A DNA stretch of 64,000 nucleotides from Candidatus Bathyarchaeia archaeon (GCA_049516875.1 JBEKSS010000014.1:19743-83742), one strand, 5' to 3'; positions 1 to 15,558 are shown, counted from the first letter of the stretch. Notes: a model not told the origin generated them from the letters alone. Numbers and translations are program-made.

Positions 1-96
1 AAAGCTTTAGAAGCAAAGTTCAGTGTGTATTCGCTGTAGCCGTTGCTTTTCACGTCTATTAACACGTTGATGATGTTTTCAGGATGCTTGTTCAAA
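1..96 (-). CDS. 5' part of a probable further tyrosine integrase (intC of a third element), running off the left window edge
   Basis: Immediately past the att copy at 120-143 the minus strand reads LNKHPENIINVLIDVKSNGYSEYTLNFASKA. This resembles the start of the 14156-15094 integrase (LAEFMIHCEKQAFADATIETKYKIL). Only about 30 codons are visible. Confidence 0.45.
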
Positions 97-213
97 AAAG
101 ACTGACGTGCTGCTAAGAGGGCTGGCGTGTTGGTCGTAACCCGTCATTAGCCTTAGTAATTTTTCATTTTGTTGTTTTTGTTCTTCTGGTTTTGTGTTGT
201 TTGGGTTTTCCAT
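79..213 (-). pseudogene. Integrase N-terminal fragment (intN) of element 2, cut by att
   Basis: ORF MENPNNTKPEEQKQQNEKLLRLMTGYDQHAS(PLSSTSVFFEQAS*) with GAGGT RBS. It crosses att in the same GYDQHAS frame as 6351-6626 and the integrase. Confidence 0.65.
120..143 (-). repeat. att direct repeat 3 (duplicate of rnpB 3' end)
   Basis: GGCTGGCGTGTTGGTCGTAACCCG, identical to 6386-6409 and 15073-15096. Confidence 0.95.
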
Positions 214-1026
214 TTTCTGTTACCTCTGTCATGTATATATCAACCCAACTTCCTAATTTATGGTTGACGAGGAGACAATATGCCTTTCTAGCATGATGCA
301 AGCATGAAGCGAAGCGCACTTGGTGGCTGACGCCAGATAACGAGCTTGCTATGGCTAGGACAGATAGCTTTCAAACCCTTCCCCCTTAAATTGCGAATGG
401 GGGAAAGGCTTATGTCTCCGAGGAGCGCGCGCTGTATTGTTGTCTTCTAGGTATAAGCTTCTAGATGGTTACCATAGCTCCTTTAGTGGCTTTAACGTTT
501 CTTGCCCTTGGCAGGAAGTTGCTGTCTCAACTGTTTCTTTTTCGCTTCTTTATCCCGTTCTATCTTTTTCTGTTGTGCGATTTGAGTATTCTTTTGTTTA
601 CGTTTCATTACACTCGGCATAAATCTCAGCTACAAATTAACGATAAATAAACAAGCTAAAAAATATTTCTTTCGCATTAATGGAGGAAGCCAATAATATC
701 CAAAACTGACGCGTCTTTCTTTCATTTCATTAAAGAAGCCAACTTTATGGTAAAAAGAGAAAAAGAGTTTTGCAAAGCTCTTTCTTGGGGCTTAAGAAGC
801 CTGTGTTTTGCTTTGCTTTTCCTAAGTCTAGAAGAGGCTCGGCTTACAGATTTTGGGTCTTGGGGCGCGCGCTAGGAGTTAAAGCGCGTTGCAGAGGGGT
901 TTTGGGGTTGAGAATTCTGGAACGCATGCTGGCTTTAGCGCGCGCTGTCGGTGCTGGTGTTCTAGGTTTTCAATCGAAGGTTCTTCCACAAATCATAAGA
1001 CTGAAAACAGTAGATATAACAAATGA

Positions 1027-1995
1027 TTGAAAATGAGCCGAAAACTTGTTTTGATGTTGACCTTGACACTTCTCATTGGCACGTTGGACTTGTCATTTGA
1101 AGTTCAAAGGGTTGAAGCATCTGGAACCATTTACATACGGGCTGACGGAAGTATAGACCCGCCAACAGCACCTATTTCAACAATTGACAATATCACATAC
1201 AGCTCAACGGGTAACATTAACGACAGCATCATTATCGAGCGGGATAACATTGTGGTTGATGGAGCACGCTACACCGTGACTGGAAACGGATATAGCGGGA
1301 ACGGAATAACGCTTACTGACAGGAACAACGTAACAGTGAGAAACATGACGATAAAAAACTTCTACATCGGCACCTATCTCTACTCTTCTTCTAACAATGT
1401 TTTGTCTGGCAACAGCGTCACAAACAACTCTTATGGCATTTTGCTCGTGTCTTCTTCTAACAATGTTTTGTCCGGCAACAACGTCACGGCAAACAACGGA
1501 AACGGCATCTATCTCCTCACACCTTCTTATCTCCTCACTTCTTCCGATAACAACACCTTGTCCGACAACAACATCGCAAACAACAACGCTGCCATAGAGC
1601 TCGACTCTTCTGATGACAACGTCTTGTCCGGCAACAACATCACAAACAGCGGGATAAGTGTCGAGCTCGTTTCTTCTTCAGGCAACAGTATCTACCACAA
1701 CAACTTCATCAACAACACCCAGCAGGCATTAACCAGCGAGGGCTATACCAACAGCTGGAATGAGAGCTATCCTTCTGGGGGCAACTGCTGGAGCGACTGC
1801 AACGGAACAGATGCAAACCATGATGGCATCGGTGATACCCCGTACATCATTGACGCAAACAACACAGACAACTATCCACTTATGGTTCCATATACAATTC
1901 CAGAGTTTCCAGCATTCCTCATTCTGCCGTTATTCTTCATAGCAACACTACTGGCGGTCATAGTGCAAAGAAGAAAACACCCTCGCGCGCGCTAG
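1027..1995 (+). CDS. Secreted NosD/CASH parallel beta-helix protein with PEF-CTERM-like sorting signal
   Basis: Signal peptide, repeated SSNNVLSGNNVT beta-helix units, GNCWSD...DGIGDTPY motif, C-terminal IPEFP + TM + RRK. Confidence 0.85.
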   Translation: MKMSRKLVLMLTLTLLIGTLDLSFEVQRVEASGTIYIRADGSIDPPTAPISTIDNITYSSTGNINDSIIIERDNIVVDGARYTVTGNGYSGNGITLTDRNNVTVRNMTIKNFYIGTYLYSSSNNVLSGNSVTNNSYGILLVSSSNNVLSGNNVTANNGNGIYLLTPSYLLTSSDNNTLSDNNIANNNAAIELDSSDDNVLSGNNITNSGISVELVSSSGNSIYHNNFINNTQQALTSEGYTNSWNESYPSGGNCWSDCNGTDANHDGIGDTPYIIDANNTDNYPLMVPYTIPEFPAFLILPLFFIATLLAVIVQRRKHPRAR

Positions 1996-2011
1996 CGTGC
2001 GCATGCCAAAA

Positions 2012-2668
2012 TCAATTTTTCTTGATTGACTTGATAACCTTGTTTGTCAGTTCTGTACACTGTTTCAACGCAGCTTTGTTCTTTAGGACTTCGCCCTTTT
2101 CATCACCTGCTCTGACGTTGACCGCTATGAAGGGAGGACGATCGTGTGAGACTAATGTCAACCCAAGAGATTCGATATACTCTACAACAGTACGCAGTGT
2201 TTCCTTCTTGAATCTGCCCGTGCCTGACAAGGCAAAAACGCAGAAAGGTTGTTGCTTCGGTAGAAGCTTATAGTTTGGTTCTGCGAAGGTGTGTTTGTAG
2301 CCTTTGTGTTTTCGCATATGAACAATTGTGTCCAGTCTTTCCAAGAAAGCTAAGAATTTTGAGGAAGCCAACAGATACTTGGGGAATATGAACATTAACG
2401 CGTCGGCTTTCTTCATCTCTGCGAGAATCTGGTTCAGATCATCTGTAAGGACACATTCTTCGTGCACACATTTTTCGCAGAGAACGCAAAACTCAATCTT
2501 CTTGCTTGCCAATTGGATTATTCGGGACTTGGAACTTGTAGACTCGAGGATAGACTTGGCTAATGCGTAACAGTTGCCATCGTTTCTGTGGGAGCCCACT
2601 ATCGCCAGAAGTTTTGTTTTCATAGACATAATTAAGCTGGTTTTCATTAAAGTCTTTATTGGTACCAA
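2012..2668 (-). CDS. Flavodoxin-family / iron-sulfur flavoprotein (NADPH-dependent FMN reductase fold); start probably at about 2623-2629
   Basis: GSHRNDGN FMN-binding loop, CxxCxxCxxxxC motif, DDLN..ADA. Confidence 0.8.
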   Translation of the reverse strand: MVPIKTLMKTSLIMSMKTKLLAIVGSHRNDGNCYALAKSILESTSSKSRIIQLASKKIEFCVLCEKCVHEECVLTDDLNQILAEMKKADALMFIFPKYLLASSKFLAFLERLDTIVHMRKHKGYKHTFAEPNYKLLPKQQPFCVFALSGTGRFKKETLRTVVEYIESLGLTLVSHDRPPFIAVNVRAGDEKGEVLKNKAALKQCTELTNKVIKSIKKN

Positions 2669-2709
2669 CTGACGCGCGCGCTAAGTAACAATACGCAGCT
2701 TTTGTTGGT

Positions 2710-2822
2710 CTTTTGTAACAAAATACTGTAACAAAACGCAAAAATCGGGGAAAAACTCCAGTTTCCAAAAAGTCAATAGAGAGTCCATGCATTTTGGCTT
2801 TTTTTCAGACTTTTGTGACAGG
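2710..2822 (+). repeat. Dispersed ~115-bp repeat, copy 1 (three TGTRACA units)
   Basis: CTTTTGTAACAAAATACTGTAACAAA identical to 61668-61693; similarity continues about 90 bp. Confidence 0.75.
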
Positions 2823-3049
2823 AAACAAAACTCCTAGAAATAAGCTTCTTTCTAGGAAATAGAATGAACTCTTCAACGTTTCCGACTTAACACCAATTAT
2901 AACCTTTCTGTGCAAAAGGCATTTTGACAAGTTCACCGCAAAACAGAGGAACTAGACAAGGATAGAAGGAAATGACGAACAAGGCGATCACGGCTTGGTT
3001 GTCTGAGGAGAAGAAACTGCAAATTGGATAGTGCGCACAAAGTGTAGGT

Positions 3050-3840
3050 TCAACTGCCTTTTTTCAGGAAATCTAGCATCTGCTTCATTTCTCTGTTCTT
3101 ATCGTTCTCTGTGGAATAGTCTCTGAAAAACTCGAATACAAGGTACTTCAGACTCTTGCAACGTTTCAATTGGTCTGTTATGAAGCCCAATTCTTGGACT
3201 GTTGGCTTATAGTGACCAAACCATTTTTTTCGCGGATCCTAGCGACAGAAAGATGGGCTGTGCATATTTCATCATTCAAACGAGAAACCCAATCAACAAG
3301 AGCTTCCATCTTCCCCTGATTTGACTCCAGAACGTGTCCTATGTCCATGCAGGAGAATAGGCTACTGTTATCCATAACCTTTGCATAGGTTCCCAAATTC
3401 GAGAATATGCCATTATTACAGTTTTCAACCGTTATCTTGCCAACTCTCTTGATTTCCTTCCCCATTTCTTTCAATGTTTTGGCTATGCGGGACGAAGTGA
3501 CGTTTTCTTCTTCAAAGCTCCCCAAATCCGTCTGTATGTGAATGTTGAAGTATTCTGACTTGATTCGCGATGCAAAGCTTGCTACCGATAAGATGGTATC
3601 ATGACTACCTTTTCGGACTCCTTCCCAAGGAGAGTACAAATAGATCGTCTCCCAAGGAGATTGAACACCTGCCTCTAGAGAGTATTCTTCAAGAGCCTCT
3701 AGTATTTTTCCTGTGTCTTCATCTAACCATGTGGGTGTGTCTATTATGATATCAACGAAATCAAAACTGAGGTTGCCAGCGATTGTTATGCCATTGACGA
3801 TTGAACCATGTCTAAAAATCACAGGAAACCCGAATTTCAT
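3050..3840 (-). pseudogene. Sugar-phosphate isomerase/epimerase (AP endonuclease 2 TIM barrel), frameshifted at an A7 run near 3224-3230
   Basis: NIH, TVEN, CMDIGH and AHLS motifs. After the A7 run another frame continues KWFGHYKP...YLVFEFF...KKGS* to 3050. Confidence 0.65.
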
Positions 3841-4095
3841 CTTGGGTCACGGATACAATAGCACGCGTGAATACTTTATAAAATAAACGCGCGCTCTTTT
3901 ACTTTCCAACCATGATTCAAAAGTGTGTCGTTAAATGGGAAAAGATAACATTAAACTTATTAACGATATCCTAAATGCATTGCATTTTAGCGTCTGATAC
4001 TCAATGAATTTAGTGAACGCACGTTTCTGTCAGCTGGTAGTCTAGTAGGTACGTTTTGATTTTGCCCTCAACTTGTGAATCGAAGGACTCGAAGG

Positions 4096-4833
4096 CTAGA
4101 GAAAAAAGCGTGCATTCAGTTCTGTTATTGGTAAAAATCTCTGGAATGCTTCTCTGATGTCACCGCTGTTTTCCAATTCGTATAGATATCCTAGTGCCCA
4201 GTAATCTTCTCCGTCGAAAGATTGATTCAACATTCCCCTAAGGTATTTTTCAATATGCGTTCCAAGGCACATCGAATTGCAGACGAAATGTAATCCCCAA
4301 TTTCTTTCGTTTTCACCGACCAGATAAGCGTCGATGTATTGCTTGATTGTACTCGCGAGTTCCCCATCATTTCTCCAGCTAAGCTGTTTCGTCCTGTCGT
4401 CACTAAGTAATTCTAGAGCAATTTCAGTTCCTTTAGAAGCGAAGTTAAGTATTTCATCAACAGAAGAGCTGTAATCTGAAAGTACCTTAGGTCTATCAAG
4501 CTCAAATTCATAGTCTCTTATCTCAAGCTTGTCCTGTTGGGGGTTGACGAGGAATCTTGAAGACAAGTCAGCCATTGCATCTCGGATTTCCGGTGGGATT
4601 TGTGTTTTCTGTTCCTCTGAAAGGTAAATGCTGCGACTTGTTGGTGGATTCATCGAAGGTATGCTGAGACAGGCGTAGAGCGAATCATCAGGAGTGCGGG
4701 GAGATTCGAAGTGGTAAGTCAGGACACAGCCGTTGATCAGCGAATTTCGCCACTTGAGGACTAATGATCTGAATAATTTGTGCAGCTTTATCTGCATGTC
4801 AACTTTGCATTTAAAATCAAAATGCACCCACAA
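4096..4833 (-). CDS. Hypothetical protein
   Basis: 245-aa ORF of normal composition, no motif recognised. Confidence 0.6.
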   Translation of the reverse strand: MWVHFDFKCKVDMQIKLHKLFRSLVLKWRNSLINGCVLTYHFESPRTPDDSLYACLSIPSMNPPTSRSIYLSEEQKTQIPPEIRDAMADLSSRFLVNPQQDKLEIRDYEFELDRPKVLSDYSSSVDEILNFASKGTEIALELLSDDRTKQLSWRNDGELASTIKQYIDAYLVGENERNWGLHFVCNSMCLGTHIEKYLRGMLNQSFDGEDYWALGYLYELENSGDIREAFQRFLPITELNARFFL

Positions 4834-5171
4834 GGCTCTTCCACATCGGTAGCTAGCTAGTTTCAGCTATAACTTTTCCGCAAAATCCTGTAAGGTTTCC
4901 TTGTGTGTCTCCTGTCGCCCCCGTGGCCCCGGGTCCGTGGCCCCCTTTTCTTTTTCCATTTTCCTTAGGAAAAATTAGAGGTGCCTCTTTCCCTTGCCCA
5001 CCCCTTTTGTGCGTGTGTGGGTGATATGGAGAGAGTAGGTAGGTGTGTGCTTGAGTGTGTGTTAGTAAGAGTCGTAGAGAGTAGTAGAGAGCGCGTGGCG
5101 TGGTGCGGCTTGAGGGGTAAAGTCTTATCCCAAACCCAATTCATAGTTGACTGGCAGGGTCTGAAGGAGAC

Positions 5172-5477
5172 GTGGGCGTTTCGACAGGAGCACATTGGAA
5201 ACGAAGGCTAATCTCTCTCGTCTGGATTCTTTTGCCATTTTTTTCGTATGGTTTGTATCTGACTTGGTTTGATGGGGGCGTTCTCGAGGGGATGGAAGCT
5301 GAATCTGTTGTTGTGTATGTTCCCCTTGCCTTTCTGCTTGCTTTTCTTGATTTGATTGTCAATAAGTGGCTGCTACTGATGCTGTATTACGTGTTGTCCT
5401 TTGTAGCGCTATTCGTCGGTTACTACATTTATGACAAACGCAGGCAAAGGGTGCGCACGCTACCGCAAAAAACCTGA
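5172..5477 (+). CDS. Small membrane protein
   Basis: GGAG RBS, about 3 hydrophobic segments. Confidence 0.5.
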   Translation: MGVSTGAHWKRRLISLVWILLPFFSYGLYLTWFDGGVLEGMEAESVVVYVPLAFLLAFLDLIVNKWLLLMLYYVLSFVALFVGYYIYDKRRQRVRTLPQKT

Positions 5478-5623
5478 ACATTATTGTTACCGTCTGCTTT
5501 GTTCGTCGTTCATCCATTTTGTGACTATTTCTTCTGCATTGGTTTGGTTTGGGGTAAAGTTTTATCCCAAACCCAAACCCAAAAACAGAAAAGTGTGTGT
5601 TACGAAGTTATGAGTGACGCGGA

Positions 5624-6310
5624 ATGAAACGAAAAGTCGTTCTTGTGCTTTGCATATTGCTTGTGATGGTGATTCTAGTATCGTCAATGGTTTACTACTT
5701 CTGGTACGTGCCTTATGTGCACGTTCCACAAGCGCTCGGGCGGCAGTATATGTCGGTGTCTTTCTGGCCAGAATTTATTGGAGATATCAAAAGCAGCCCG
5801 ACTCCCCTCCACCTAAACTATGAAGGGAATGCGATGAACGTAACTTATGTCTCAATAGAAATCAATGTGACCAATAGCTACTTCCAACCTGTATACATAA
5901 ACTTCAGCGGTTTTGACGTAGTCTGGCTCATATATAAAAGGACGGTAACTGACCCTTCAGATGTCCTGAGTAACAGAGACTCTCTCGTTTGGGGGGCTTA
6001 CTATTATTTGGTTTATGAAGCAATATCGAACCCACGTAGAGGTATCCACGACTTCGCGGGAGACGATCTAGAATTCTATTCAGCAAATAGAAACAACACA
6101 AATTTCCAGACAGACATACCGAGCGGTAGCAGATCACAGTACTATGGGTACGCGTTGTTCGATGATCACATGGGCGGCGAGTGGTATGGCCAATATTATT
6201 CAAATCCTGAGTCACTCGTATCTCCAGGAACGTATTTCATGTACTGCATAATCTACGACTTTTCATGCACTCTACAAAACATAACCATAACTTCAGCAGC
6301 CCTACACTAG
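5624..6310 (+). CDS. Membrane-anchored/exported hypothetical protein
   Basis: N-terminal basic + hydrophobic anchor, Ig-like C-terminus (PGTYFMY), several N-x-S/T sites. Confidence 0.7.
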   Translation: MKRKVVLVLCILLVMVILVSSMVYYFWYVPYVHVPQALGRQYMSVSFWPEFIGDIKSSPTPLHLNYEGNAMNVTYVSIEINVTNSYFQPVYINFSGFDVVWLIYKRTVTDPSDVLSNRDSLVWGAYYYLVYEAISNPRRGIHDFAGDDLEFYSANRNNTNFQTDIPSGSRSQYYGYALFDDHMGGEWYGQYYSNPESLVSPGTYFMYCIIYDFSCTLQNITITSAALH

Positions 6311-6350
6311 CAAAAACGATCCTGTATTGAGACTCAGCGCACGCGCTATC

Positions 6351-6626
6351 TTAGGGTTCGACTCTTGTGGTATTCGGGAAATTAAGGCTGGCGTGTTGGT
6401 CGTAACCCGTCTTTAGTACAAGTAATTCTGGTTTTGGTGTTGTCGATTGATCTTTAGCTTGTGGTTGGTCTTTGGTTTCGGGTTTGGTTTCTTCATTCAT
6501 ACTTTTTGCCCTTTCTAGGAGTTTGGGGATTTCTATTTCTGTCCTTAGTCTCCCGTGTTCTATTTCGTCACGTGTTCTTTTTTGGGTTTCGTTTGTTTGA
6601 TTTGTCATGTATATCCTCCAATTCAC
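6351..6626 (-). pseudogene. Integrase N-terminal fragment (intN) of element 1; probable start 6608
   Basis: GGAGGA RBS before MTNQ. Reads ...ELLVLKTGYDQHASL across att, in the same frame as the integrase C-part. Confidence 0.75.
6386..6409 (-). repeat. att direct repeat 2 (distal att of element 1)
   Basis: 24-bp identity (26 bp with the AA at 6384-6385) to the rnpB 3' end. Confidence 0.95.
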
Positions 6627-6833
6627 CGCGTGCGTCGGTTTTTCTTTTTAACGTTTGGTCTCGCATGTACATCAACCCACATTCCTAATCGTTTCATTGA
6701 CGAGGCGACAATATGCCTTTCCCGACTGAGCAACTTTTTAGGACTGCGGGGAGCGCGCGCTGTGCGGGCGACTTGTTGCTCTGTTGGATTTCCGCGCTAC
6801 TTTACTGAGCGTTAAAACGGCGGGTGTTTATAG

Positions 6834-6907
6834 CGTTCTGTTGTTTACTGTTGTTTGTTGTTTGTTCTGTTGTTGTTTGTTCTGTTGTTGTTTGTTCTGT
6901 TGTTGTT
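6834..6907 (+). repeat. T/G-rich tandem repeat, about 3 copies of TTTGTTCTGTTGTTG
   Basis: Directly visible 15-bp periodicity in the non-coding part of element 1. Confidence 0.7.
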
Positions 6908-7155
6908 AGCGTGTGTTAGTTAATTCGTTCCTGTTAGCGAGAGTATAGCGAGTTGTTTGTGGCGTTATTGTTGCTGTTCCTTTGGCGTTCGATTGGCGTT
7001 TTGCCTATTTTTGTAGCGCGCGCGACCTTGTTGGATATTTTGTATCAGTAAAAAGTTGCGAAGGAGGCGCACCCTGAGCGGAGCGAGGGGGAAAGGCTTA
7101 TGTCGCCGAGGATTTCGAAGCGCGCGCTATAATACTTTTGCGCGCGATTTCTTGC

Positions 7156-7746
7156 TCATTTGAGCAGTTGGGATATTTTTGACAGTTTTTCCTGAGTCTG
7201 GTTTACTGAATCCACGATTTGTCGGTATTGTTTTGGATACTTCTTTGCGATTGTTATGAACTGTTTTACCACTTGGGGGGTGAATCCTGTGCGCATTTGG
7301 TTGGCTAGGATGGAATCGATGTCGGTTTGTTCTATTTTTCCCTTGGTTAATGCTGCGAGATATAATACCTCGAACGCGTTTTCTCCGAGAATCGGTGTGG
7401 TTTCTATGAGAAATTGAAGGTTAATGTCTTTTGGATAAAATTCACGTGCTCTGATAAGAATTGTTTGGGGATCTGCTCCTCTGCTTATTGCGAGGAATAT
7501 GCCTAGTTCGGTAAGCCAGAAAGACGGGTATTTTGTGCCGTGATATTCTTTAGTTGTTACGCTTTTGATCAGTCCTTTCTTCTTCAGTGTGTCGAAAGCA
7601 ATCCATGTGGATTTGTACTGCCCGTTGATTTGCTTCATAGTTTCATTAATGGTTTGAGCGTTGTTCCTTGCCAGACTCAGAATTACACGCTCCTGCAAGG
7701 GAGGAAAGTCACGTGTCTTCCTATTTTGCTTAGACATATGTCTCAC
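7156..7746 (-). CDS. Winged-helix DNA-binding protein, divergent from the Rep operon
   Basis: AFDTLKKKGLIKS...FWLTELG wHTH signature. Confidence 0.7.
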   Translation of the reverse strand: MRHMSKQNRKTRDFPPLQERVILSLARNNAQTINETMKQINGQYKSTWIAFDTLKKKGLIKSVTTKEYHGTKYPSFWLTELGIFLAISRGADPQTILIRAREFYPKDINLQFLIETTPILGENAFEVLYLAALTKGKIEQTDIDSILANQMRTGFTPQVVKQFITIAKKYPKQYRQIVDSVNQTQEKLSKISQLLK

Positions 7747-7875
7747 TGAGCTTAGATATGTTATATCTCACCATATATAAAAGTTCTTGCCTAAAACTAC
7801 TCGGTGAGAAAAGTTGTTTGAAAATTCGAAACGGAAAACTGCGCACGCTGTGCTCCCTTTGGGAGTTGATTTTCT

Positions 7876-8076
7876 ATGGCTGAGGGTAAGCTGCTGAACT
7901 GTATCTTCTGGGATGGTGTCGCTTGTAAGCATCGTAAGTCTGAGACGGTGAACATGATGGTTCGATGTTGGAGCTGTCGCCAGTTCAAGCGGTTTGTGAG
8001 ACAAATGGATGATGCTGATGCGAAAATCATGGAGGAAAATGAGAAGAGGCGTTCGGAAGGTGACGGTCTTGGTTGA
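7876..8076 (+). CDS. Small Cys-rich (Zn-finger-like) protein upstream of Rep
   Basis: CIFW..C, CWSC motifs; overlaps Rep start. Confidence 0.6.
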   Translation: MAEGKLLNCIFWDGVACKHRKSETVNMMVRCWSCRQFKRFVRQMDDADAKIMEENEKRRSEGDGLG

Positions 8077-9094
8077 CGCTGCTGTCCTCCGATTGGTTCG
8101 CTATTTTCTGGTTCTCCTTAGGTTGAACCCTCAGTTGATGGAGAATGCCTATTGGTATCTGCCCGTTCTGGACGATGGCCACGATAATTATGCGCAGGTG
8201 GGTCATAGCCCTAGCGTTGTAACTCCTTACTGTTGCTATTTCAGGGGTTGGAAGGTCTGTCGTGAAAAGGACTTGCATAAGGGTGTGGTTGTGAACGGTG
8301 TTGATTTTACGGATAAATCGGCGGTTTCCCCTTCACATCTCTGGTGTAAGAATTGGCATTGCCCTAAGTGTTTTCTTCACGGTGCTTGTGTCGTTGGTGC
8401 CCGTAGGATTGAAGACCGCCTGACTGCCTTCGTTGAGCGTGGACTTGGTAAGGTCGAGCACGTAGTTTTTTCGGTTCCAAAGGCTTCTCAGGACTTACCA
8501 TTGGAAGTCTTGTTCAAGATGCTTCCGTCAGTGGCAAAGGACAGGGGCGTGTCTGGTGTCTCAATTTTTCATGGGCGGTACATAAATACTGAGCTTGGCG
8601 GCCTTGCATGGAGAGCACATTTCCACGTGTTGGGTTTTGTTGACGGTGGCTTTTACCGTTGCAGGACTTGTGAACATGAGCGCAGTGCATGTGCTAGCTG
8701 TGACGGTTTCAAGGGTTGTGAAGTTCGAGGCTTTGCCAAAGACGGGTGGATTGTCAAGGTTGCTGATGAACGTTTGAGCATCTTTGGTACGGCGTGGTAT
8801 CAGTTAAATCACCATACGGTAAAGCTCGGTTTTCGCAGGGTGCACTCTGTCAGATGGTTTGGTAAGTGTGGCAACAGGATGCTAAAATCCAAGTACCATA
8901 GGTCTGGTGCTGGTTGCTCCTGTCCCGTTTGTCGGGCTGCTGGTCACGAGTCGGTAATGGATAATGGCGGATACTGGGGTAAACGTTTGCCTGATGATGT
9001 CTCCGATCCGCGTTACAAGTCTGTTTACGCTGTGCCTGATTTGGATGAAGAGGGCTTGCCAAACTTTGCCGATGGAGGTGATAGACTTGGTTAA
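8009..9094 (+). CDS. rep: HUH rolling-circle replication initiator with Zn-binding motifs (IS91/SNJ1-RepA-like architecture); start probably GTG about 8060
   Basis: CKNWHCPKC Zn motif, motif I HVVFSVP, HUH motif AHFHVLGF, motif III TAWYQLNH, C-terminal CPVC. Confidence 0.8.
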   Translation: MMLMRKSWRKMRRGVRKVTVLVDAAVLRLVRYFLVLLRLNPQLMENAYWYLPVLDDGHDNYAQVGHSPSVVTPYCCYFRGWKVCREKDLHKGVVVNGVDFTDKSAVSPSHLWCKNWHCPKCFLHGACVVGARRIEDRLTAFVERGLGKVEHVVFSVPKASQDLPLEVLFKMLPSVAKDRGVSGVSIFHGRYINTELGGLAWRAHFHVLGFVDGGFYRCRTCEHERSACASCDGFKGCEVRGFAKDGWIVKVADERLSIFGTAWYQLNHHTVKLGFRRVHSVRWFGKCGNRMLKSKYHRSGAGCSCPVCRAAGHESVMDNGGYWGKRLPDDVSDPRYKSVYAVPDLDEEGLPNFADGGDRLG

Positions 9095-9245
9095 GGTCCA
9101 AATATGTCCTTTCGATGGCTTACCATGCGAGTTTGTGGATTCTTGCGATGATGCTATGGTCTTGCTCTTAGAGCGTGAAGGTCTCAAAGGCTTCGATACT
9201 GAGAATGGTGAACATTGTTCACGCGCTGTTATTCGGCTAAAATGA
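9087..9245 (+). CDS. Small Cys-rich protein coupled to the end of Rep
   Basis: GGAGGTGA RBS, TTG start, CPFDGLPCEFVDSC motif. Confidence 0.55.
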   Translation: MVKVQICPFDGLPCEFVDSCDDAMVLLLEREGLKGFDTENGEHCSRAVIRLK

Positions 9246-9287
9246 GTTTCGTACCAAGCGCGCGCTCTAATCTTCTCTTTTTTTCTC

Positions 9288-10082
9288 TTAGCGCGCCCAC
9301 AAGCGCCATTTTTTGGTTTCAGACAAAATAGTTTTGCCCAATTCAGTAAAGTAGTATTCTGGCTGACCGCCATACACTTTTTTCCTGAAGGGAATCGGCT
9401 TTGCACTTCTAATGACTCCGAGATTGATAAGGTCACGGGCGATTCTTCTCAAGTCGTTCTTCTCACAGCTTTCATGGTAGAGACCATACTCTCCTTTGCG
9501 GCTTGAATCGAATGCACATAAGTCAAAACCCCTATCAACATATCCTCGGACTACTTCCAAAAATGAGATCATATCAATGTCCAATGCGCCCAAAACATTT
9601 CTGACCATTAAGTCTCTCGTTAAGTCCACTTGTTTTTCGGCATTTATCACAAGCTTTCTTATTTTGTCTCTTGAATTTTTTGCATTCTGTGTGGAAAATT
9701 TGTTCCATCTGAGGTGCCTAATATCAAAAGAAATATTTTCTGACTTTTCATCCCTTACGATGATTACCTCCTGTGGCAGACGGATGGCATGAGCTATGCC
9801 CAGTTCGTACATAACATTTGGATTTGGTCGGTCTTTTTCATCATTCGAAATATCGAATAACAACAACTTTGCTCTGCCGACTCCTTCCAAAACATCAATA
9901 GGAATCGAGTCGCTAACAAGTCGCTCTTTTGTACGATATGGTTTCAGACCGCATGAAAGAATAGCAGGTTTAAAGATATCTTTCCATCGTTGTTCGAATT
10001 GAGAGGAGAAAGGCATTGCCACAAATACTTCCATTGTCCTATCGAATGACCTGAACAAGTCCATGTAAGTTTTTGGGTACAT
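9288..10082 (-). CDS. Nucleoside 2-deoxyribosyltransferase/TIR-like domain protein with possible C-terminal wHTH
   Basis: VFVAMPFS, D-I-S, NPNVMYELGIAHA, FDIRHLR motifs; YYFTELGK at the C-terminus. Confidence 0.75.
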   Translation of the reverse strand: MYPKTYMDLFRSFDRTMEVFVAMPFSSQFEQRWKDIFKPAILSCGLKPYRTKERLVSDSIPIDVLEGVGRAKLLLFDISNDEKDRPNPNVMYELGIAHAIRLPQEVIIVRDEKSENISFDIRHLRWNKFSTQNAKNSRDKIRKLVINAEKQVDLTRDLMVRNVLGALDIDMISFLEVVRGYVDRGFDLCAFDSSRKGEYGLYHESCEKNDLRRIARDLINLGVIRSAKPIPFRKKVYGGQPEYYFTELGKTILSETKKWRLWAR

Positions 10083-10165
10083 TCCTATTGCATCATTCCA
10101 ATTTCTTGTACCTTACGTGGAACTTTCCAAACAAATTGGTTTCACCAGACATTTGATTGAGTGCC

Positions 10166-10759
10166 TTATTGTTCTTGTTGGATTCTCAGCCAGTCTTTTA
10201 TCAGAAGCTTGAACCTTACTATCTCATCATTGTCCAGTTCGCAGCTATGGGCGATAATGTTTCTAATGTTATTGAATTGACAGAGTGTGTCTTGAACTGC
10301 CTTTCTGCTTCTGAGAATATCTGCAAAGTCATTCCAATTTGAGTTGAATATGTCGGTTAACTCACCGAAGTTTGTATAGGATAAGTTATCATCAGACCGA
10401 ATCGACATTGCAGTTTCTCTTTCCTTTGCTTGCAGTTTCTTGACGTTATCTTTTATAACCACTGGAACTTTTTTTTCCCACCAATCGGTGCCGTGTTTTT
10501 CTCTCAGAACGTCAGTGATGAGCTTACGTACACTGTTCTCCATGCTGAAATATAATACATAGAAATCTGCCATTTTGCGAGCTTTCTGAAGGATTTCGAG
10601 TTCAAATAGGTCGGTGTCTACTAGTTCGTCTTTCTTCATTTGTTGTGAATGCCCGATTTCGATACCTGACCTTTCCAATTTCGCGAGTTCACCTTCAAGC
10701 ATCAAGTTCTTCATTCCAAAAACTAGGATTTGTTTGTTTCTTTCATTCTCGTCTTTCAT
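10166..10759 (-). CDS. Swt1-like HEPN domain protein (putative RNase)
   Basis: ENSVR, DWW, YTNFGEL and RNIIAH (Rx4H) motifs. Confidence 0.8.
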   Translation of the reverse strand: MKDENERNKQILVFGMKNLMLEGELAKLERSGIEIGHSQQMKKDELVDTDLFELEILQKARKMADFYVLYFSMENSVRKLITDVLREKHGTDWWEKKVPVVIKDNVKKLQAKERETAMSIRSDDNLSYTNFGELTDIFNSNWNDFADILRSRKAVQDTLCQFNNIRNIIAHSCELDNDEIVRFKLLIKDWLRIQQEQ

Positions 10760-11370
10760 GTTAGGAGGTGCTCCTTCAGAGCTTTGAAGATAGCATTGAA
10801 CACTTCGACGTCGTTTGTTGCAGGAAGGTTGAGATTTATCGTATAGGATATTCCGAGTTTCTCAATCGGTTGCTGCTTCGACTTTAATTGAGGCTCTAAC
10901 GGTTCCTGTGAAACAGCTGACGTTGCTTCTGTTATTTCTGTTGTCTCAAAATCAGCTAAGCTGCACAGTGCTAAAAAAGTACTCACCACTTTAGGCGTAA
11001 CCTTATCGTCTGAGGGAGTGCCTAGAACTGTATTCAGTTTGGCGATTATTTCATCTCTTTTGAGCTTTTGTGCGTACTCATTAGCGGCAAATATCTCTTT
11101 GTAAGCCTTCTTCACTTGTTGAGCCATTACAATTTTGGATTTCATTGGGTCGCGGTACTCTCTGTAGGCAGGGGTTGGGCCATTAGCTTCATCAACAAAT
11201 CCGAGTCTCTTAAGAAGTGCGATAAAAGGTCTAAAACTTGATGACTTCAAACCGAGTTTTGTGTATATGAAATCGACTGTGATTTTGGGTGGCACCTGTG
11301 CTTCCGTTATTCTTTTGAAAAACTCTTCTATTCTACCGTAAGCGTCCACATAAGGAGGATAAGTGACCAA
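10756..11370 (-). CDS. DUF5343-like DNA-binding protein, translationally coupled to the HEPN gene
   Basis: PPY...VPPK...LKRLGFVD..GPT..Y and C-terminal YTINLNLPAT..VFNAIF pattern; ATGA overlap at 10756-10759. Confidence 0.65.
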   Translation of the reverse strand: MVTYPPYVDAYGRIEEFFKRITEAQVPPKITVDFIYTKLGLKSSSFRPFIALLKRLGFVDEANGPTPAYREYRDPMKSKIVMAQQVKKAYKEIFAANEYAQKLKRDEIIAKLNTVLGTPSDDKVTPKVVSTFLALCSLADFETTEITEATSAVSQEPLEPQLKSKQQPIEKLGISYTINLNLPATNDVEVFNAIFKALKEHLLT

Positions 11371-11755
11371 TTTTATTCTCCGTTATCTCGTTAGTGAACT
11401 AACACATAAGAGGTTTTTGGTCAGTATGTCTTTTGTTCAATTTTGTGGTCTGAAACCACGTTCATGTAGTACGCGACGTCGGTTCTTTGAGCACATCGTC
11501 TGGAACGTGCGCGCGCGCATTGATGTTGGGTCGATTCGTAAGTTTCATAGAAAATGAGCAATTAGAAGCGTGGATGATGGCGAAAATGGAAAGATTGATA
11601 AAGGGGCAGCGAGTATTTGTGAGGAGTTTGTTTCGTCAAGGGTGACGCTTGCATGGACGCTGTCTTCGCGGCCTAGGCCGTTATTGCACTGTGTTGGTAG
11701 CCTAGTCTATAGGTCTGTTTGGCGCCACCAATCTTGAAACCAGGAGGTTTCCATT

Positions 11756-12025
11756 TTGGGTTTGATTTCAACTTTGAGAGATGAGTTTGCGTTTCTTCGC
11801 GGCAACATTCTGGTCATGATGACCAGTTGGTTAGTGATGAACTTTGCTGGCGCTGTTCCCAACACTTACTATTCTCTCTTTGTCCTGGGGTTAGGCGGCA
11901 CGCCCTTCATCATAGGCTTAATGCAGTTCTTTTCATACCTGGCTTTAGCTTCGACGCAGTTTCCAGGGGGTTATTTGGCAGACAAGCGCTGGAGAAAGAA
12001 CCTCGTGGTGAAGCGCGGGCTTTAA
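11756..12025 (+). pseudogene. Truncated MFS transporter (N-terminal fragment)
   Basis: GGAGG RBS; ends just after MFS motif A (GGYLADKRWRK). Confidence 0.7.
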
Positions 12026-12037
12026 AGGGGAACACTG

Positions 12038-13321
12038 ATGAGCAAGAATAAGTCAAGAGATGAGCTGGACCCTAAACGAAGATCTCATTGGTTTTCAAGT
12101 ATTTCTTTGAAGGCGGGGTTCTCAGGCTTGTCCTCCCAAGTGTATATCCTAGTGTTTCTGGGCTTTCTGTTCTCACTTGGAAATAACATTGCTTTCCCCT
12201 ACCTTGCCATGTTCTTGGCAGGAAAAACTCAAAACGGGGGTTTAGGGTTTGCCTCGTCACTCGTGGGTTTGATGCTTATGACAGGAGGATTCACTTCCAC
12301 CTTTGCACTCCTGTTCACTGGAAGCTTGTGTGACAGATTTGGCAGAAAAATAATGATGATGTCCTCACTGATTCCACAGATTCTGCTGACCATCGGCTTT
12401 GCATACGTTCACGCATATCTCGAATTCCTGCTGCTGTATGCAACACTTGGAATTGTAATGGCCTTTTTCAACCCAGCTTACGGTGCCATGATCGCGGATC
12501 TCGTCCAGCCAGAAAGAAGGGAACAGGTCTACGGCCTAAATTACATGGTAGGCAACGTTGGTTTTATGGCTGGATTGCCCATCGGGGGTTTAATTGCAAG
12601 CATGAGTGGCTTCTCTGTGCTATACTTCTACGCTGCCATTTTTGTATCCGCAGGGGCAGCTGGCCTTGGTCTACTGATCAAGGAATCTAAGCCTCTTGAG
12701 GTCGCTAAGGAAAAGTTTTTTTCCGATGTTACCCCGATCTTTAGAGACAGAGTTTTCATACTGTTTTGTTTCATGGGAGCCTTGACAATTGTCGTTTACT
12801 CACAACTGTACAGTTTGCTATCCGTCTACACGGAGTACCTTGGCTTTGAGCCCTACGTCTTTGGCTTTCTCTCCTCAATAGCTGGTGCGATGGTGGTGAC
12901 CCTCCAAATCCCAATCAGATTGGGAACTGTGCGAATAGGTCCGACAAAAGCATTCATAATCGCTGAGACACTCTTTGGTGCGGGATTAATCTGTTTAATG
13001 TTTGCTGCGAACTTTTCCCAATTCTTAGTAGCCATTGCAATTCTGACCATTGGAGAAATAATCTTCTTCCCTGCAAGCTCAGCTTTTGTTGCTAATCTTG
13101 CTCCAGCAGATATGCGGGGAAGATACTTGGCTCTGATGGGACTATTCTTTGGAATAGGAGGTGCAACAACAGAACTGACGATCTTCAGTATTTATGGATT
13201 GTTGGCTAACAAAAGCTTGATCTGGGGGATTTGGGGAACGCTTGGATTCGCGATTCTCCCTGGCTATTTGATGTTATTCAAGATGGCTAAGAGACACAGA
13301 TCAATTCCGACGCGGCCCTGA
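12038..13321 (+). CDS. MFS transporter
   Basis: GSLCDRFGRK motif A, about 12 TM helices, APADMRGRY. Confidence 0.9.
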   Translation: MSKNKSRDELDPKRRSHWFSSISLKAGFSGLSSQVYILVFLGFLFSLGNNIAFPYLAMFLAGKTQNGGLGFASSLVGLMLMTGGFTSTFALLFTGSLCDRFGRKIMMMSSLIPQILLTIGFAYVHAYLEFLLLYATLGIVMAFFNPAYGAMIADLVQPERREQVYGLNYMVGNVGFMAGLPIGGLIASMSGFSVLYFYAAIFVSAGAAGLGLLIKESKPLEVAKEKFFSDVTPIFRDRVFILFCFMGALTIVVYSQLYSLLSVYTEYLGFEPYVFGFLSSIAGAMVVTLQIPIRLGTVRIGPTKAFIIAETLFGAGLICLMFAANFSQFLVAIAILTIGEIIFFPASSAFVANLAPADMRGRYLALMGLFFGIGGATTELTIFSIYGLLANKSLIWGIWGTLGFAILPGYLMLFKMAKRHRSIPTRP

Positions 13322-13456
13322 GTCAAGGCTAGTCATCTATGAAAGGTGCTGGAACCCTTAACCTATTATGTGGAAACTGCAATGCGCGCGCGTTAGAAAG
13401 CGTTATATGAAAATGAACTCGATTAAAAGTCGAGGATAGCGCGGGCGACATTTCGG

Positions 13457-14038
13457 GTGGAGGGGCACAATTTGAGACTTAACTATTTAGGTTTTATCGG
13501 AGGCATATTGGCTTTCATCAGCTTGGTGTTACCGTGGTGGGCTATGAGCATTTCGGGTTCAGCCATGGAAATTAACGTCTCTGACGAGGTTACTCTGTAC
13601 CTATACCAAACGAGAGTGACCATAATAGGTTTATCAGTATCCGCTTCAACGAATCTTCCTTGGTATTGTTCGATTGCCTTAGCATTTGTGGTGTTAGGCG
13701 GCTTGCTGGGCTTGGCAGGTAGTGTCATTGCTAATGGGAGAAGGATTGTACTTTCACTTGGCGCCATACTTGCCTCGTTTTCGGTTATCATATTCGCTGT
13801 AGGATTGCAAAACCAGATTTCAAATGGGTCTTTGGTTTCGGGTTTGCCAACAGGAGTAGGTTTGTTCTCCAGTGGTGCATACGGCTATGGAATGGATTAC
13901 TCGTCGTACCTGTCTTTCGGTTTTTGGCTGGCCTTGGTTGCCGCGATTATAATGTTTGTCGCACTAACGAGAGAGCGCATGCTAGAACCCGCTGAGACAA
14001 TAATACCACCTCAACCTTCTCCCCCTGCGCCGACGTAG
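13457..14038 (+). CDS. Four-TM membrane protein with Pro-rich tail
   Basis: LPWW motif, GFWLAL, hydrophobic segments. Confidence 0.75.
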   Translation: MEGHNLRLNYLGFIGGILAFISLVLPWWAMSISGSAMEINVSDEVTLYLYQTRVTIIGLSVSASTNLPWYCSIALAFVVLGGLLGLAGSVIANGRRIVLSLGAILASFSVIIFAVGLQNQISNGSLVSGLPTGVGLFSSGAYGYGMDYSSYLSFGFWLALVAAIIMFVALTRERMLEPAETIIPPQPSPPAPT

Positions 14039-14155
14039 AATCGCGCGCGCTGTTGTTGTTTTGAGTTTTTGCGAGTTGGAGCGCGAAGCGAAGCTGAGCG
14101 CGACATTGTGGTCAGGAATGACATTGAATAGAAAAAAAGGTGGGCTGTTTGTGTC

Positions 14156-15094
14156 TTATTTGCGTTTTCGGAACATCATTATATTTTGGGGCGTTGTCAG
14201 AATGTATGTCCATCCGTTGTCTATTAGTTCGCCTGCTTCTTTTTCGTCTTTGGCTATTGCATGGTGGTAGTTTTGGCTTTCTTCGTCAAATTGAACTATG
14301 TGAGTGTAAACCATTGTTGAGTTTATGTTTCGGTGTCCTAGTCTTGCTTGAACTTCGATTAGGCTTTTGGTTTCGTTATAGAGACGTGTGGCGTGGTAGT
14401 GTCGTAGAGTGTGGAAATGTATTTGTTTGAGTCGTGGGTTGTTTAGTTTTTCAGCGAGGCGTTTCTTTTGATAATTGAACATGGTCCGAGTGAAGCCTAA
14501 GCGGGTGTTGCTGAATATGTAATTGTTTCGTTTCGGTAATGTGTTGAGTCGTGCAAATAGCTTAGCTGAGATTTTTACTTCTCTCGGTTTGCATCCTTTT
14601 TCAGGGTTGTTGCATTTGAGTGTGTTTTTTTCTTCGTCTATGTCTGTCCATTTGCATTGCCATAGTTCGCCTATTCTGAAGCCTGTTTCTTTGAGTGTTT
14701 GGAGTGCAATGGAGACTTTTTTGCTCGTTCCGCTTATGAGTGCGTCTATCTCTTTTTCTGTTGGAACGAATGGGAGTGTTTCATTTTTGGGATAGAGTGG
14801 TGGTGTCCATTGGATACCTTTCATTTTGGCGTATTCGTTGTAGGTGAAAACTGCTAGATTCTTGTGTCCGTTGGACCATTTGCCGTTTCTTTTTATGTAG
14901 AGTTTTACGGCTTCGGGGTCTGCTAGGTTTACGTTCTCTTTTATCATGTGTCGTAGAATCTTGTATTTCGTTTCGATGGTTGCGTCTGCGAAGGCTTGTT
15001 TTTCGCAATGTATCATAAACTCTGCGAGGTCTGTGTTTGTGATGACGTCAGAGCAGGCGGGTTCCTTTGAAAGGCTGGCGTGTTGGTCGTAACC
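14156..15094 (-). CDS. int: Tyrosine integrase, catalytic C-part (intC); open frame extends upstream through att into rnpB
   Basis: Catalytic residues in TGFRIGE, EKG, HTLRH, LGH, TMVY. Frame is open from GYDQHASLSKEPACSDVITNTDLAEF to the ATG at 15016. Confidence 0.92.
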   Translation of the reverse strand, partial: GYDQHASLSKEPACSDVITNTDLAEFMIHCEKQAFADATIETKYKILRHMIKENVNLADPEAVKLYIKRNGKWSNGHKNLAVFTYNEYAKMKGIQWTPPLYPKNETLPFVPTEKEIDALISGTSKKVSIALQTLKETGFRIGELWQCKWTDIDEEKNTLKCNNPEKGCKPREVKISAKLFARLNTLPKRNNYIFSNTRLGFTRTMFNYQKKRLAEKLNNPRLKQIHFHTLRHYHATRLYNETKSLIEVQARLGHRNINSTMVYTHIVQFDEESQNYHHAIAKDEKEAGELIDNGWTYILTTPQNIMMFRKRK

Positions 15095-15391
15095 CGCCTT
15101 TTGTTTTTTGTGGCATTCGGCTAATCGGGCTACCCGCGCCTTCCGGTAGATTCTTCATCGGCGTCTGTTTGCCCTTTCCACTTGCAGGACGGCCGTTTCA
15201 CCGTTTCGCACCCTGCATTCTCGACAACTTAGCATGTGTCATCGGCATATGCCGGGCGGACGTTTCGTTTCTGCTCCGTAGCCAAGGTTCTCACCTTACG
15301 CCCTTGCAGGCGTTGCAATTCTACGCGTGGGCGGAGTTTCCTCAAGCCTTCCAATATGAGGCTCGAAAGCCACACACCAACTCGCCAGCCC
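15072..15391 (-). ncRNA. rnpB: Archaeal RNase P RNA
   Basis: P1 helix GGCTGGCGAGTTGGT / ACCAACACGCCAGCC; GAGGAAACTCCGCCC pairing with AACAAAAGGCGGGTTA (P4); internal GCAGAAAC and TGAAACGGCCGTCC conserved regions; about 320 nt. Confidence 0.92.
15073..15096 (-). repeat. att direct repeat 1 (within rnpB 3' end)
   Basis: CGGGTTACGACCAACACGCCAGCC on the minus strand. Confidence 0.95.
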
Positions 15392-15558
15392 AACAGTAAC
15401 TATCACATCAGTCTCCAATAAGAATTTTGGCACCTATGTACTTCCTGACTTATAGTCCGAGAAAATGGCATATTGAGTCAAGTTGGAGAAACGGGGGTCG
15501 CACGCGCAACCTATTTAAGAATCAAGGCGCACCACACCGATGATCTGGTGCACTAATC

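Follow-up and report, generated by a model that had tools for sequence, protein, structure and literature searches.

In a 64,000-nt stretch of DNA from a peat-soil archaeon, Candidatus Bathyarchaeia archaeon (GCA_049516875.1, JBEKSS010000014.1:19743-83742; hereafter the window), the gene for RNase P RNA, rnpB, ends an array of integrated elements that are separated by exact copies of the last 24 nt of that gene. The array is at least three elements and one decayed remnant, apparently inserted successively into rnpB's last 24 bases. Site-specific integration into rnpB is highly probable. The explanation as a whole, in which rnpB is the chromosomal attachment site (attB) of a family of tyrosine-recombination elements that stack into an array and most likely carry partitioning integrases, is very likely correct. 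The repeats, the gene, the integrases, their stacking, the differences among relatives and the repeated linkage of integrase to rnpB are observed; the recombination event, the insertion order, the expression of a partitioned frame as protein and the Rep function are deduced from them. RNA-gene-targeting tyrosine-integrase elements are a known kind; those described here are aimed at rnpB, stacked four deep and, most likely, equipped with partitioning integrases.

The array at the 3' end of rnpB

The window takes up the final 64 kb of contig C14 (83.7 kb), part of a 2.43-Mb metagenome-assembled draft genome (G000) of 20 contigs with 5.4% contamination. A cmscan search detected an archaeal RNase P RNA (Rfam RF00373, RNaseP_arch) at 15078-15385 on the minus strand, with a score of 196.6 bits (gathering score 84; E 5.1e-57) and a match to positions 1-288 of the 288 in the model. 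Helix P1 reaches 5 bp past the Rfam model on each side: read directly on the minus strand, the 5' octamer GGCUGGCG pairs perfectly with the 3' CGCCAGCC. The RNA therefore spans approximately 15073-15390, and the 24-mer is its very 3' end. In terms of structure, we take the 24-mer to comprise the 3' strand of P1 and the end of the conserved CR-V/P4 stretch.

Within the window, the 24-mer occurs exactly at three positions on the plus strand. No other match with 3 or fewer mismatches was found in the window, and no match was produced by any of 100 dinucleotide shuffles. A fourth exact copy lies outside the window on the same contig (C14:4869-4892), 14,993 nt left of the copy at 120, and there the identity to rnpB runs for 32 nt. 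A fifth copy was not found anywhere in the genome at up to 6 mismatches. The repeats and the segments that they delimit are as follows.

15073-15390, minus strand: rnpB, full length, from the RF00373 match and the P1 extension; the sole full-length match in this genome
15073-15096, plus strand: att (attachment site) copy 1, exact 24-mer within the Rfam match and its 5-nt P1 extension, joining element 1 and the body of rnpB
6386-6409, plus strand: att copy 2, exact 24-mer, joining element 2 and element 1
120-143, plus strand: att copy 3, exact 24-mer, joining element 3 and element 2
6410-15072: element 1, 8,663 nt, GC 0.443, bounded by att copies 1 and 2, with cargo that is absent from congeners
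144-6385: element 2, 6,242 nt, integrase-less, bounded by att copies 2 and 3, with a left arm that is typical of the integrase-distal end and common to the elements of congener G002
C14:4893-19861: element 3, 14,969 nt, to the left of the window, ending at att copy 4 (C14:4869-4892)

From left to right, the array consists of a remnant with a frameshifted integrase gene, an att, element 3, an att, element 2, an att, element 1, and the att within rnpB. The GC content of these units is 0.43-0.44, compared with 0.472 for the genome. Tyrosine integrase genes on the minus strand lie directly left of three of the four att copies, with their open reading frames (ORFs) starting 24-62 nt left of the repeats. 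Two are intact, those of elements 1 and 3, and these are only 31-33% identical to each other. The leftmost (C14:3846-4806, minus strand), directly left of the fourth att, is split by a frameshift into ORFs of 209 and 101 aa. An aragorn search found no tRNA or tmRNA gene in the window, and the target of the repeat is therefore not of that class. The repeat is the 3' part of an RNA gene that is itself left intact, which is the mark of Islander-class elements.

Much of this layout had been proposed by an earlier reading made from the DNA alone (the sequence-only reading). Its RNase P RNA at 15072-15391 is right to within a base, and its recurrences of the last 24 nt of rnpB at 120, 6386 and 15073 are exact. 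The 8.7-kb and 6.3-kb segments that it saw between them measure 8,663 and 6,242 nt. The tyrosine integrase described as abutting the first repeat copy proved to be a PF00589 ORF 56 nt from the copy in rnpB, and the suspected third integrase start just past the att at 120 belongs to a real 295-aa ORF. The search that it suggested for the 24-mer in the flanking contig yielded the fourth copy. Its claim that insertion restores the 3' end of rnpB also holds, as the repeat is the end of the gene and the gene is full-length.

The arrangement suggests a mechanism. An element would bring a copy of the terminal 24-32 nt of rnpB, located beside its integrase gene, and recombination of that copy with rnpB would place the element just behind the gene, with one repeat at each end. 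A full-length ribozyme gene would thereby be rebuilt, with an extreme 3' end that is then element-derived. Because each insertion would recreate the site, further elements could land there and build a head-to-tail array. Position 15 of the 24-mer is T in all four att copies, and C in the rnpB of the three congeners in which the gene was found; this is consistent with an element-derived rnpB 3' end, and fits a lineage-specific base equally well.

It is extremely unlikely that the repeats are not recombination sites at all, and instead reflect an assembly artefact or rnpB pseudogene fragments scattered by duplication. The draft state and contamination of the assembly would allow this, and contigs from other metagenome runs break at rnpB. 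However, the 24 nt of the repeat are fewer than the 31-nt words of the Logan index, and the junction at 6386 is crossed by independent contigs. Of the words sampled from window positions 6200-15600, a region made up mostly of element 1, 84-99% are present in each of seven metagenome runs from peat or wetland. For four runs (X3, X5, X6 and X7), Logan contigs were aligned to window positions 1-16000, a stretch that lies to the right of the fourth att copy. In three runs not flagged as possible sources, contigs cross the junction of elements 2 and 1 with 0 differences (X3, 5553-6884; X6, 5744-6884; X7, 6262-6884), showing that the array is not an assembly artefact. In addition, the layout of integrase, att and rnpB recurs at 36 of 80 loci from other genomes, complete chromosomes included, and the repeats in the array are in register and co-oriented, each adjoining an integrase or a conserved element arm.

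Integrase reading frames across the att repeat

In SSV-type (type I) integrases, as described in parts of PMC8371274 and PMC7253208, the att lies inside the integrase reading frame, and integration splits the gene into an N-terminal portion, Int(N), and a C-terminal portion, Int(C), at opposite ends of the element. The protein includes the translated att, and insertion duplicates the 3' part of the target and restores the RNA gene. We compared our elements with such systems in fuselloviruses and in plasmids of Thermococcales and Methanococcales. The integrases described here are probably of this partitioning ("suicidal") type, judging from their reading frames, with the att inside the frame. 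The relevant features are the following.

14156-15072, minus strand: Int(C) of the element 1 integrase, annotated ORF 14156-15016 (286 aa), with the frame open up to and through the att
6351-6626, minus strand: Int(N) of element 1, a 91-aa ORF with its start at GTG 6626 or ATG 6608, reading through att copy 2
1-95, minus strand: the first 95 nt of the element 3 integrase, a 295-aa gene at C14:18950-19837, from its ORF and tblastn

The element 1 integrase matches PF00589 with 85.6 bits against a Pfam cut-off of 27.1 (E 4.4e-24), and its database homologues all carry this domain. R123, R217, H218, H240 and Y249 are invariant across an alignment of eight integrases (A2); we presume that these R/R/H/Y columns have catalytic roles.

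In the integrated element 1, Int(N) and Int(C) lie at opposite ends and use the same att frame. The Int(N) ORF reads att copy 2 as GYDQHAS, and at att copy 1 this frame continues into Int(C) uninterrupted by a stop. Upstream of the annotated start of the integrase, this frame is open for 46 codons, through the att. We simulated the attachment site of the circular form (attP) by joining the ends in silico for six elements with two att cores, namely element 1 (L149), L155, L175, L187, L220 and L216. For element 1, the simulated attP extends the Int(C) frame by 106 open codons upstream of the annotated start. In all six elements, the integrase frame is open through the att and has an ATG 12-67 codons upstream, and in five it is the longest open frame; among the two remaining frames of each, an upstream ATG was found in 1 of 12. 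Element 3 has an ATG 5 codons ahead of the 24-mer, which is in frame with its integrase through a different att frame, giving an Int(N) of 5 codons.

A database search with the element 1 integrase returned 411 homologues at E ≤1e-20, of which 120 were read. Their N-terminal extensions encoded by rnpB occur in all three frames, and a conserved peptide directly follows the att. In three homologues (P0006, P0032 and P0034), the att peptide is preceded by sequence that is not rnpB. In congener G003, the homologous arm keeps the Int(N) ORF from its ATG onward, despite a 55-nt deletion just upstream.

An alternative with the same target and the same array is that the integrases are non-partitioning, like that of pNOB8. 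The attP would then lie just upstream of an intact integrase gene that starts at the annotated ATG or TTG, and the open frame through the att would be incidental, the att having no stop in any of the three frames. The whole Pfam domain and the N-terminal part of alignment A2 do fall within the annotated Int(C) ORFs, and in many database homologues the called start comes immediately after the att (M/L/V-NPP...). The spacers between att and annotated start are so short (24-56 nt) that their openness is likely by chance. Int(N) of element 1 is also of low complexity, and by hand count the copies in G000 and G003 differ by ~9 amino-acid changes per ~17 nucleotide changes, so that purifying selection on Int(N) is not evident, a point that speaks for the non-partitioning alternative. 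Against it, a far-arm ATG is present in the integrase frame of all six simulated junctions and in only one of the twelve control frames, the integrase frame is the longest in five elements, and 106 codons are open in element 1. The peptide behind the att is conserved even though homologues read the att in three frames, and neither element 1 nor several of the homologues have a start codon between the att and this peptide. Furthermore, in two relatives that target tRNA genes (L089 and L091), the integrase match encloses the tRNA. On balance we regard non-partitioning integrases as unlikely.

In a partitioning system, the integrase frame of the circular form would begin in the far arm and run through the att. 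Integration would part the catalytic portion from its own start codon and presumably its promoter, leaving Int(C) behind rnpB and co-oriented with it. The elements described here differ from SSV-type systems in that the target there is a tRNA gene and here the RNase P RNA gene, in that Int(N) is often only a few codons (element 3, L175 and L216) and Int(C) nearly the whole protein, and in that one att is read in all three frames by different elements. The likeness is one of arrangement, and the IMG/VR scan given below returned only distant matches.

Occupancy and recurrence among relatives

We searched for rnpB in 40 relatives (records titled Bathyarchaeia), and read the flanks of 28 loci with at least 300 nt of flanking sequence. 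The 5' flank is syntenic at 24 of the 28. On the 3' side, the neighbours differ in nearly every genus, and consist of different elements, of arrays, or of nothing. A 3' flank of 1.5 kb was available at 24 loci, and an integrase is present in it at 5 and absent at 19. One of the latter (L009 of G003) still holds an integrase-less element that is bounded by a second att copy.

Four congeners were searched, and one of them (G001) gave no rnpB match. In G002, the integrase shares 92.7% identity with that of element 1, the cargo is unrelated, and four att copies fall within 19 kb. The element of G003 is 8.5 kb long and integrase-less, with a far arm 91-94% identical to that of element 1. G004 has a different integrase, which is related to the broken one in our array (74% at the DNA level). 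Outside these, G023 has three att copies. The relatives thus do not share the repeats and gene order, each of the three congeners differing, as the presence/absence variation expected by the sequence-only reading demands. Accretion in tandem, which it had also proposed, is seen in the head-to-tail units, with the att present in four copies both here and in G002 and in three in G023, and in paired integrases on single contigs. Over a patch of 400 nt, element 2 and G004 are 99% identical, compared with 81-93% for flanking chromosomal genes, which points to recent exchange.

Fragments of rnpB were also observed. At L040 (G021:C1:259819-260037) and L055, a 220-228-nt 3' fragment lies beside an integrase with the full gene on another contig, and fragments of 115 and 126 nt are present in G013 and G016. 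They represent either elements with identity well beyond 24-32 nt or rearranged arrays. In a family-wide rnpB search in which two candidates were scored per genome, approximately 96 of 276 matching genomes (hand count) had at least two, some of them second full-length copies; this result was not used as evidence.

To survey integrases more widely, the alignment of eight integrases was searched against 185,579 species genomes (one per GTDB species). This gave 182 homologues, of which the best 80 were analysed; 79 of these come from records titled Bathyarchaeia, Bathyarchaeota or uncultured archaeon, and one (L091) from a Thermoproteota archaeon. The 80 loci were scored with an nhmmer profile of the rnpB of 28 relatives, a fuzzy att search, aragorn and Rfam. 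In 30 of them, the integrase is immediately preceded by a co-oriented rnpB, which in one case is a 228-nt fragment and in another is truncated where the contig ends. Another 6 have only a bare att core, which indicates an inner member of an array, and one of these has rnpB 2 kb further on. A tRNA gene occupies that position at 13 loci (Gly, Gln, Ala, Arg, Leu and two intron-bearing tRNAs). At the remainder, rnpB is convergent (1), a tRNA lies inside the integrase match (2), or nothing was recognised (28). An Rfam scan of 38 integrase loci revealed no RNA-gene target other than tRNA and RNaseP_arch. Tandem integrase pairs on one contig were found twice (L102 with L070, and L050 with L051), one pair being on a complete chromosome.

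A midpoint-rooted FastTree phylogeny was built from 68 integrases; of 85 sequences, 17 had been removed because of stops, frameshifts or length. Integrases linked to rnpB fall into a large clade with that of element 3 and a distant second clade with that of element 1, and tRNA-linked clades lie between the two. As the tree lacks a proper root, we do not claim two independent origins of rnpB targeting. The sequence-only reading had envisaged a single family targeting rnpB; the targeting stands, and the family is really two distant integrase clades (31-33% identity) at one site.

Two further loci bear on site choice. A sibling element in this genome (contig C11:3780-10800) has an integrase (C11:3858-4703) that falls in the large rnpB-targeting clade, and carries the arm motif of elements 1 and 2 (described below) beside a different 17-nt direct repeat, without rnpB; this is an apparent target switch within the clade. 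At L120, an integrase (1410-2276, plus strand) is convergent with rnpB (2317-2624, minus strand), its stop codon being 40 nt from the RNA 3' end. This integrase, which has an N-terminal zinc-ribbon extension and homologues (P0082-P0117) of 374-441 aa, shows the reverse layout at the same site.

Element 1 encodes a Cys-rich 361-aa protein (8009-9094, plus strand) that is a candidate rolling-circle replication protein (Rep) of the HUH type. Its ESM Atlas feature score to Rep_1 clusters is 0.96, which is a lead only, and H204, H206, Y264 and H268 are invariant in 46 sequences. We interpret H204-x-H206 as a possible HUH motif and Y264 as the possible catalytic Tyr. The AlphaFold2 model has a predicted local distance difference test (pLDDT) score of 87.6. 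A search of JGI metagenome contigs gave 554 relatives of the protein; of the 80 best loci, an integrase is present on 43, an att core on 25 and rnpB on 17, and 7 are bounded by two cores, forming units of 2.4-8.7 kb. The architecture of element 1 recurs in L155, L175, L187 and L220. These associations place element 1 in a common family of small Rep-plus-integrase elements at rnpB.

Several results weigh against the explanation advanced here. The Logan contigs of the four runs showed neither an excised circle nor an attP junction nor an empty attB of this strain, and none of the 80 Rep-bearing metagenome loci has the terminal overlap (at least 15 nt) of a circular form. No integrase was detected in element 2 (144-6385) by tblastn, and the leftmost integrase is frameshifted; the array is therefore fossil in part. 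Contig C14 does not reach the chromosomal boundary on the left of the array, so that a complete empty-site comparison within the genus is impossible. The near-identical integrase of G002 is paired with a different, much shorter arm, so that arms may have been shuffled within arrays. No close relative was found in IMG/VR, where the integrase alignment gave 24 matches, all at ≤33% identity. As for the candidate Rep, it has no Pfam match, only Zn_Tnp_IS91 appearing at E up to 10 (E 0.18), and Foldseek against PDB gave nothing at E ≤0.001 for its model (best E 0.03), HUH entries (2xm3, 3dky, 8amu and 9pqf) appearing only at E 0.15-0.29.

Other assembly features of the array were also considered. 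A joint of 143 to 15068 occurs in a single contig, with a side of 21 nt and a depth of 154 against ~23 for the genome. This joint and the loose contig ends at 15071 and 15104 are all explicable by the 32-nt repeat of the fourth att copy or by rnpB of other species. Both of these loose ends agree with sequence flanking the fourth att copy, and further ends at 15072 and 15108 are rnpB of other species. An exact empty site of this strain was not seen among the relatives' loci either. In two relatives (L017 and L032), the 3' neighbour of rnpB is homologous to C1:17.5-19.7 kb, and it could not be demonstrated that contig C1 abuts C14 at the left end of the array.

Some of these results would also be expected of a fixed array, in which integrations into rnpB took place in the past and the units are now immobile, ordinary chromosomal islands. 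Such a history would account for the missing integrase of element 2, the frameshifted leftmost integrase, the finding of the same junction of elements 2 and 1 with 0 differences in three other runs, and the failure to see a circle or an empty site. It fits less well with the integrases of elements 1 and 3, which are intact with conserved catalytic residues, with the identity of four att copies over 24 nt, with the different arrays held by the three congeners that have an rnpB match, or with the 99% identical patch in G004. We consider a fixed, immobile array less likely than not.

Element contents, known systems and significance

Beyond the integrase and the candidate Rep, the following genes and motifs were assigned in elements 1 and 2.

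7156-7746, minus strand: putative transcriptional regulator of element 1, 196 aa, with a weak match to phrog_11046 (E 7.8e-4) and no Pfam match
9288-10082, minus strand: 264-aa cargo protein of element 1, phrog_3634 (E 4e-13)
10166-10759, minus strand: Swt1-like HEPN cargo protein of element 1, PF18731 (E 4.8e-13)
10756-11370, minus strand: DUF5343 cargo protein of element 1, PF17278 (E 3.3e-45)
12038-13321, plus strand: major facilitator superfamily (MFS) transporter of element 1, PF07690 (E 4.4e-49)
1027-1995: NosD-like beta-helix surface protein of element 2, Pfam match
2012-2668: FMN reductase-like protein of element 2, Pfam match
3178-3840: TIM-barrel protein of element 2, Pfam match
264-425, plus strand: inverted pair of 25-nt motifs near the integrase-distal end of element 2, with a counterpart in element 1 at 6697-7112

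The block at 9288-11370 (DUF5343, HEPN and the 264-aa protein) is possibly a defence or toxin-antitoxin module. Element 1 also encodes a membrane protein. Other cargo of elements 2 and 3, named by reading the translations alone, includes a GH1-like glycosidase, a GNAT protein, a serine hydrolase and an ABC transporter, and we take the C-terminal anchors of the surface proteins of these two elements to be PEF-type. A search of 10 proteins against PHROGs gave the one regulator (E 7.8e-4) and two families without known function, and no virus hallmark genes; the view that the elements are proviruses was not adopted.

The inverted 25-nt motifs lie 120-290 nt inside the integrase-distal end of four elements (E1, E2, C10 and C11), and the elements that bear them target rnpB, a tRNA gene and another site. 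At C11:10568-10644 and C10:14777-14853, the pair forms a compact hairpin of ~65 nt (~-30.6 kcal/mol in a plain fold), a form that occurs in metagenome contigs at 10-200 times the genome depth. In elements 1 and 2, the loop between the motifs is longer by 115-370 nt. The pair may serve as an integrase arm site, as an origin or as a regulatory RNA.

Two stretches of element 2 (3739-4272 and 4807-5874) have a depth 10-100 times that of the rest in some runs, and many loose contig ends fall at ~4862-4882, 5136 and 5539-5579. These stretches are probably repeated or widely shared short mobile sequences. On the other side of rnpB, 15559-16944 encodes a 461-aa secreted or anchored protein with about nine 40-aa repeats, between rnpB and its family-wide syntenic neighbour. 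This protein is present in the genus (G003 and G004); in other genera, the syntenic neighbour lies within ~90 nt of rnpB. The region looks like an insertion on the 5' side of the gene.

Small plasmids with a rolling-circle (HUH) Rep that also integrate are known in archaea, such as those like pRN/pSSVx and pT26-2. Element 1 and its metagenome relatives resemble them in size (5.7-8.7 kb) and in having one Rep-like gene, one integrase and few cargo genes. The difference is that the Rep-like protein here is without a Pfam family or a significant match among solved structures, and that no free circle was found.

Site-specific integrases are generally thought of as tRNA/tmRNA specialists, and Williams reportedly described in 2002 how genomic islands and prophages lie in the 3' ends of tRNA and tmRNA genes. 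The islands handled by Islander/TIGER, in the portion of PMC12424338 available, share with our elements a tyrosine integrase beside an intact RNA gene, a repeat that is the 3' part of that gene, frequent tandem arrangement, cargo for metabolism, transport, surface and defence, and occupancy that varies among relatives. The target class differs, and the host here belongs to an uncultured archaeal class. The site classes named in that portion are tRNA/tmRNA, protein-coding and intergenic, with no mention of rnpB. Likewise, the excerpted text of a 2021 review of archaeal tyrosine recombinases (PMC8371274) lists tRNA genes, protein-coding genes and intergenic sites as targets and also describes archaeal elements as capable of integrating in tandem. 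Neither "RNase P" (0 occurrences) nor Bathyarchaeota is mentioned in it.

A precedent for a structural RNA other than tRNA or tmRNA as attB is phage phiEf11, which integrates into ffs, the gene for 4.5S/signal recognition particle (SRP) RNA, in Enterococcus faecalis, with a 27-nt identity block near the integrase. The 2025 paper, in the part available (PMC12540744), presents ffs as a novel non-coding RNA target, the known ones being tRNA/tmRNA and csRNA. phiEf11 differs from the present case in being a bacterial phage that targets a different RNA, as a single prophage and not an array, with an integrase that is not partitioned. A full-text literature search found no published report of rnpB as an attachment site, although integration-site tables, supplements or the TIGER/Islander database could list it.

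A more far-reaching idea, which we offer as speculation and think quite unlikely, is that a large branch of "suicidal" integrases in Bathyarchaeia moved from tRNA genes to rnpB and that the coupling is functional. In this view, the 3' strand of P1/P4 in the ribozyme would also supply integrase codons, in a frame that varies among elements over all three, and Int(C), once inserted behind rnpB in the same orientation, would have its frame open into that gene. Read-through from a strong rnpB promoter, or failed formation of the RNA 3' end, could then express Int(C) and trigger excision, and the array would be a platform on which arms, integrases and cargo are reshuffled.

Throughout a large archaeal class that has not been cultured, insertions are thus frequent at a ribozyme gene that is essential and present in a single copy. 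Integrases of two distant clades use the same 24 nt, and the elements build up arrays of 30 kb or more. In genomes with an occupied site, the extreme 3' end of the RNase P RNA would be element-derived, which bears on the use of rnpB as a marker and on how the 3' end of the RNA is formed. For mobile DNA in Bathyarchaeia, the resulting rule is to look behind rnpB: tools confined to tRNA and tmRNA genes would miss these islands, and comparative tools, to judge from the part of the TIGER/Islander text available (PMC12424338), may file them as intergenic. The att and integrase described here also provide a defined pair for a lineage without genetic tools.

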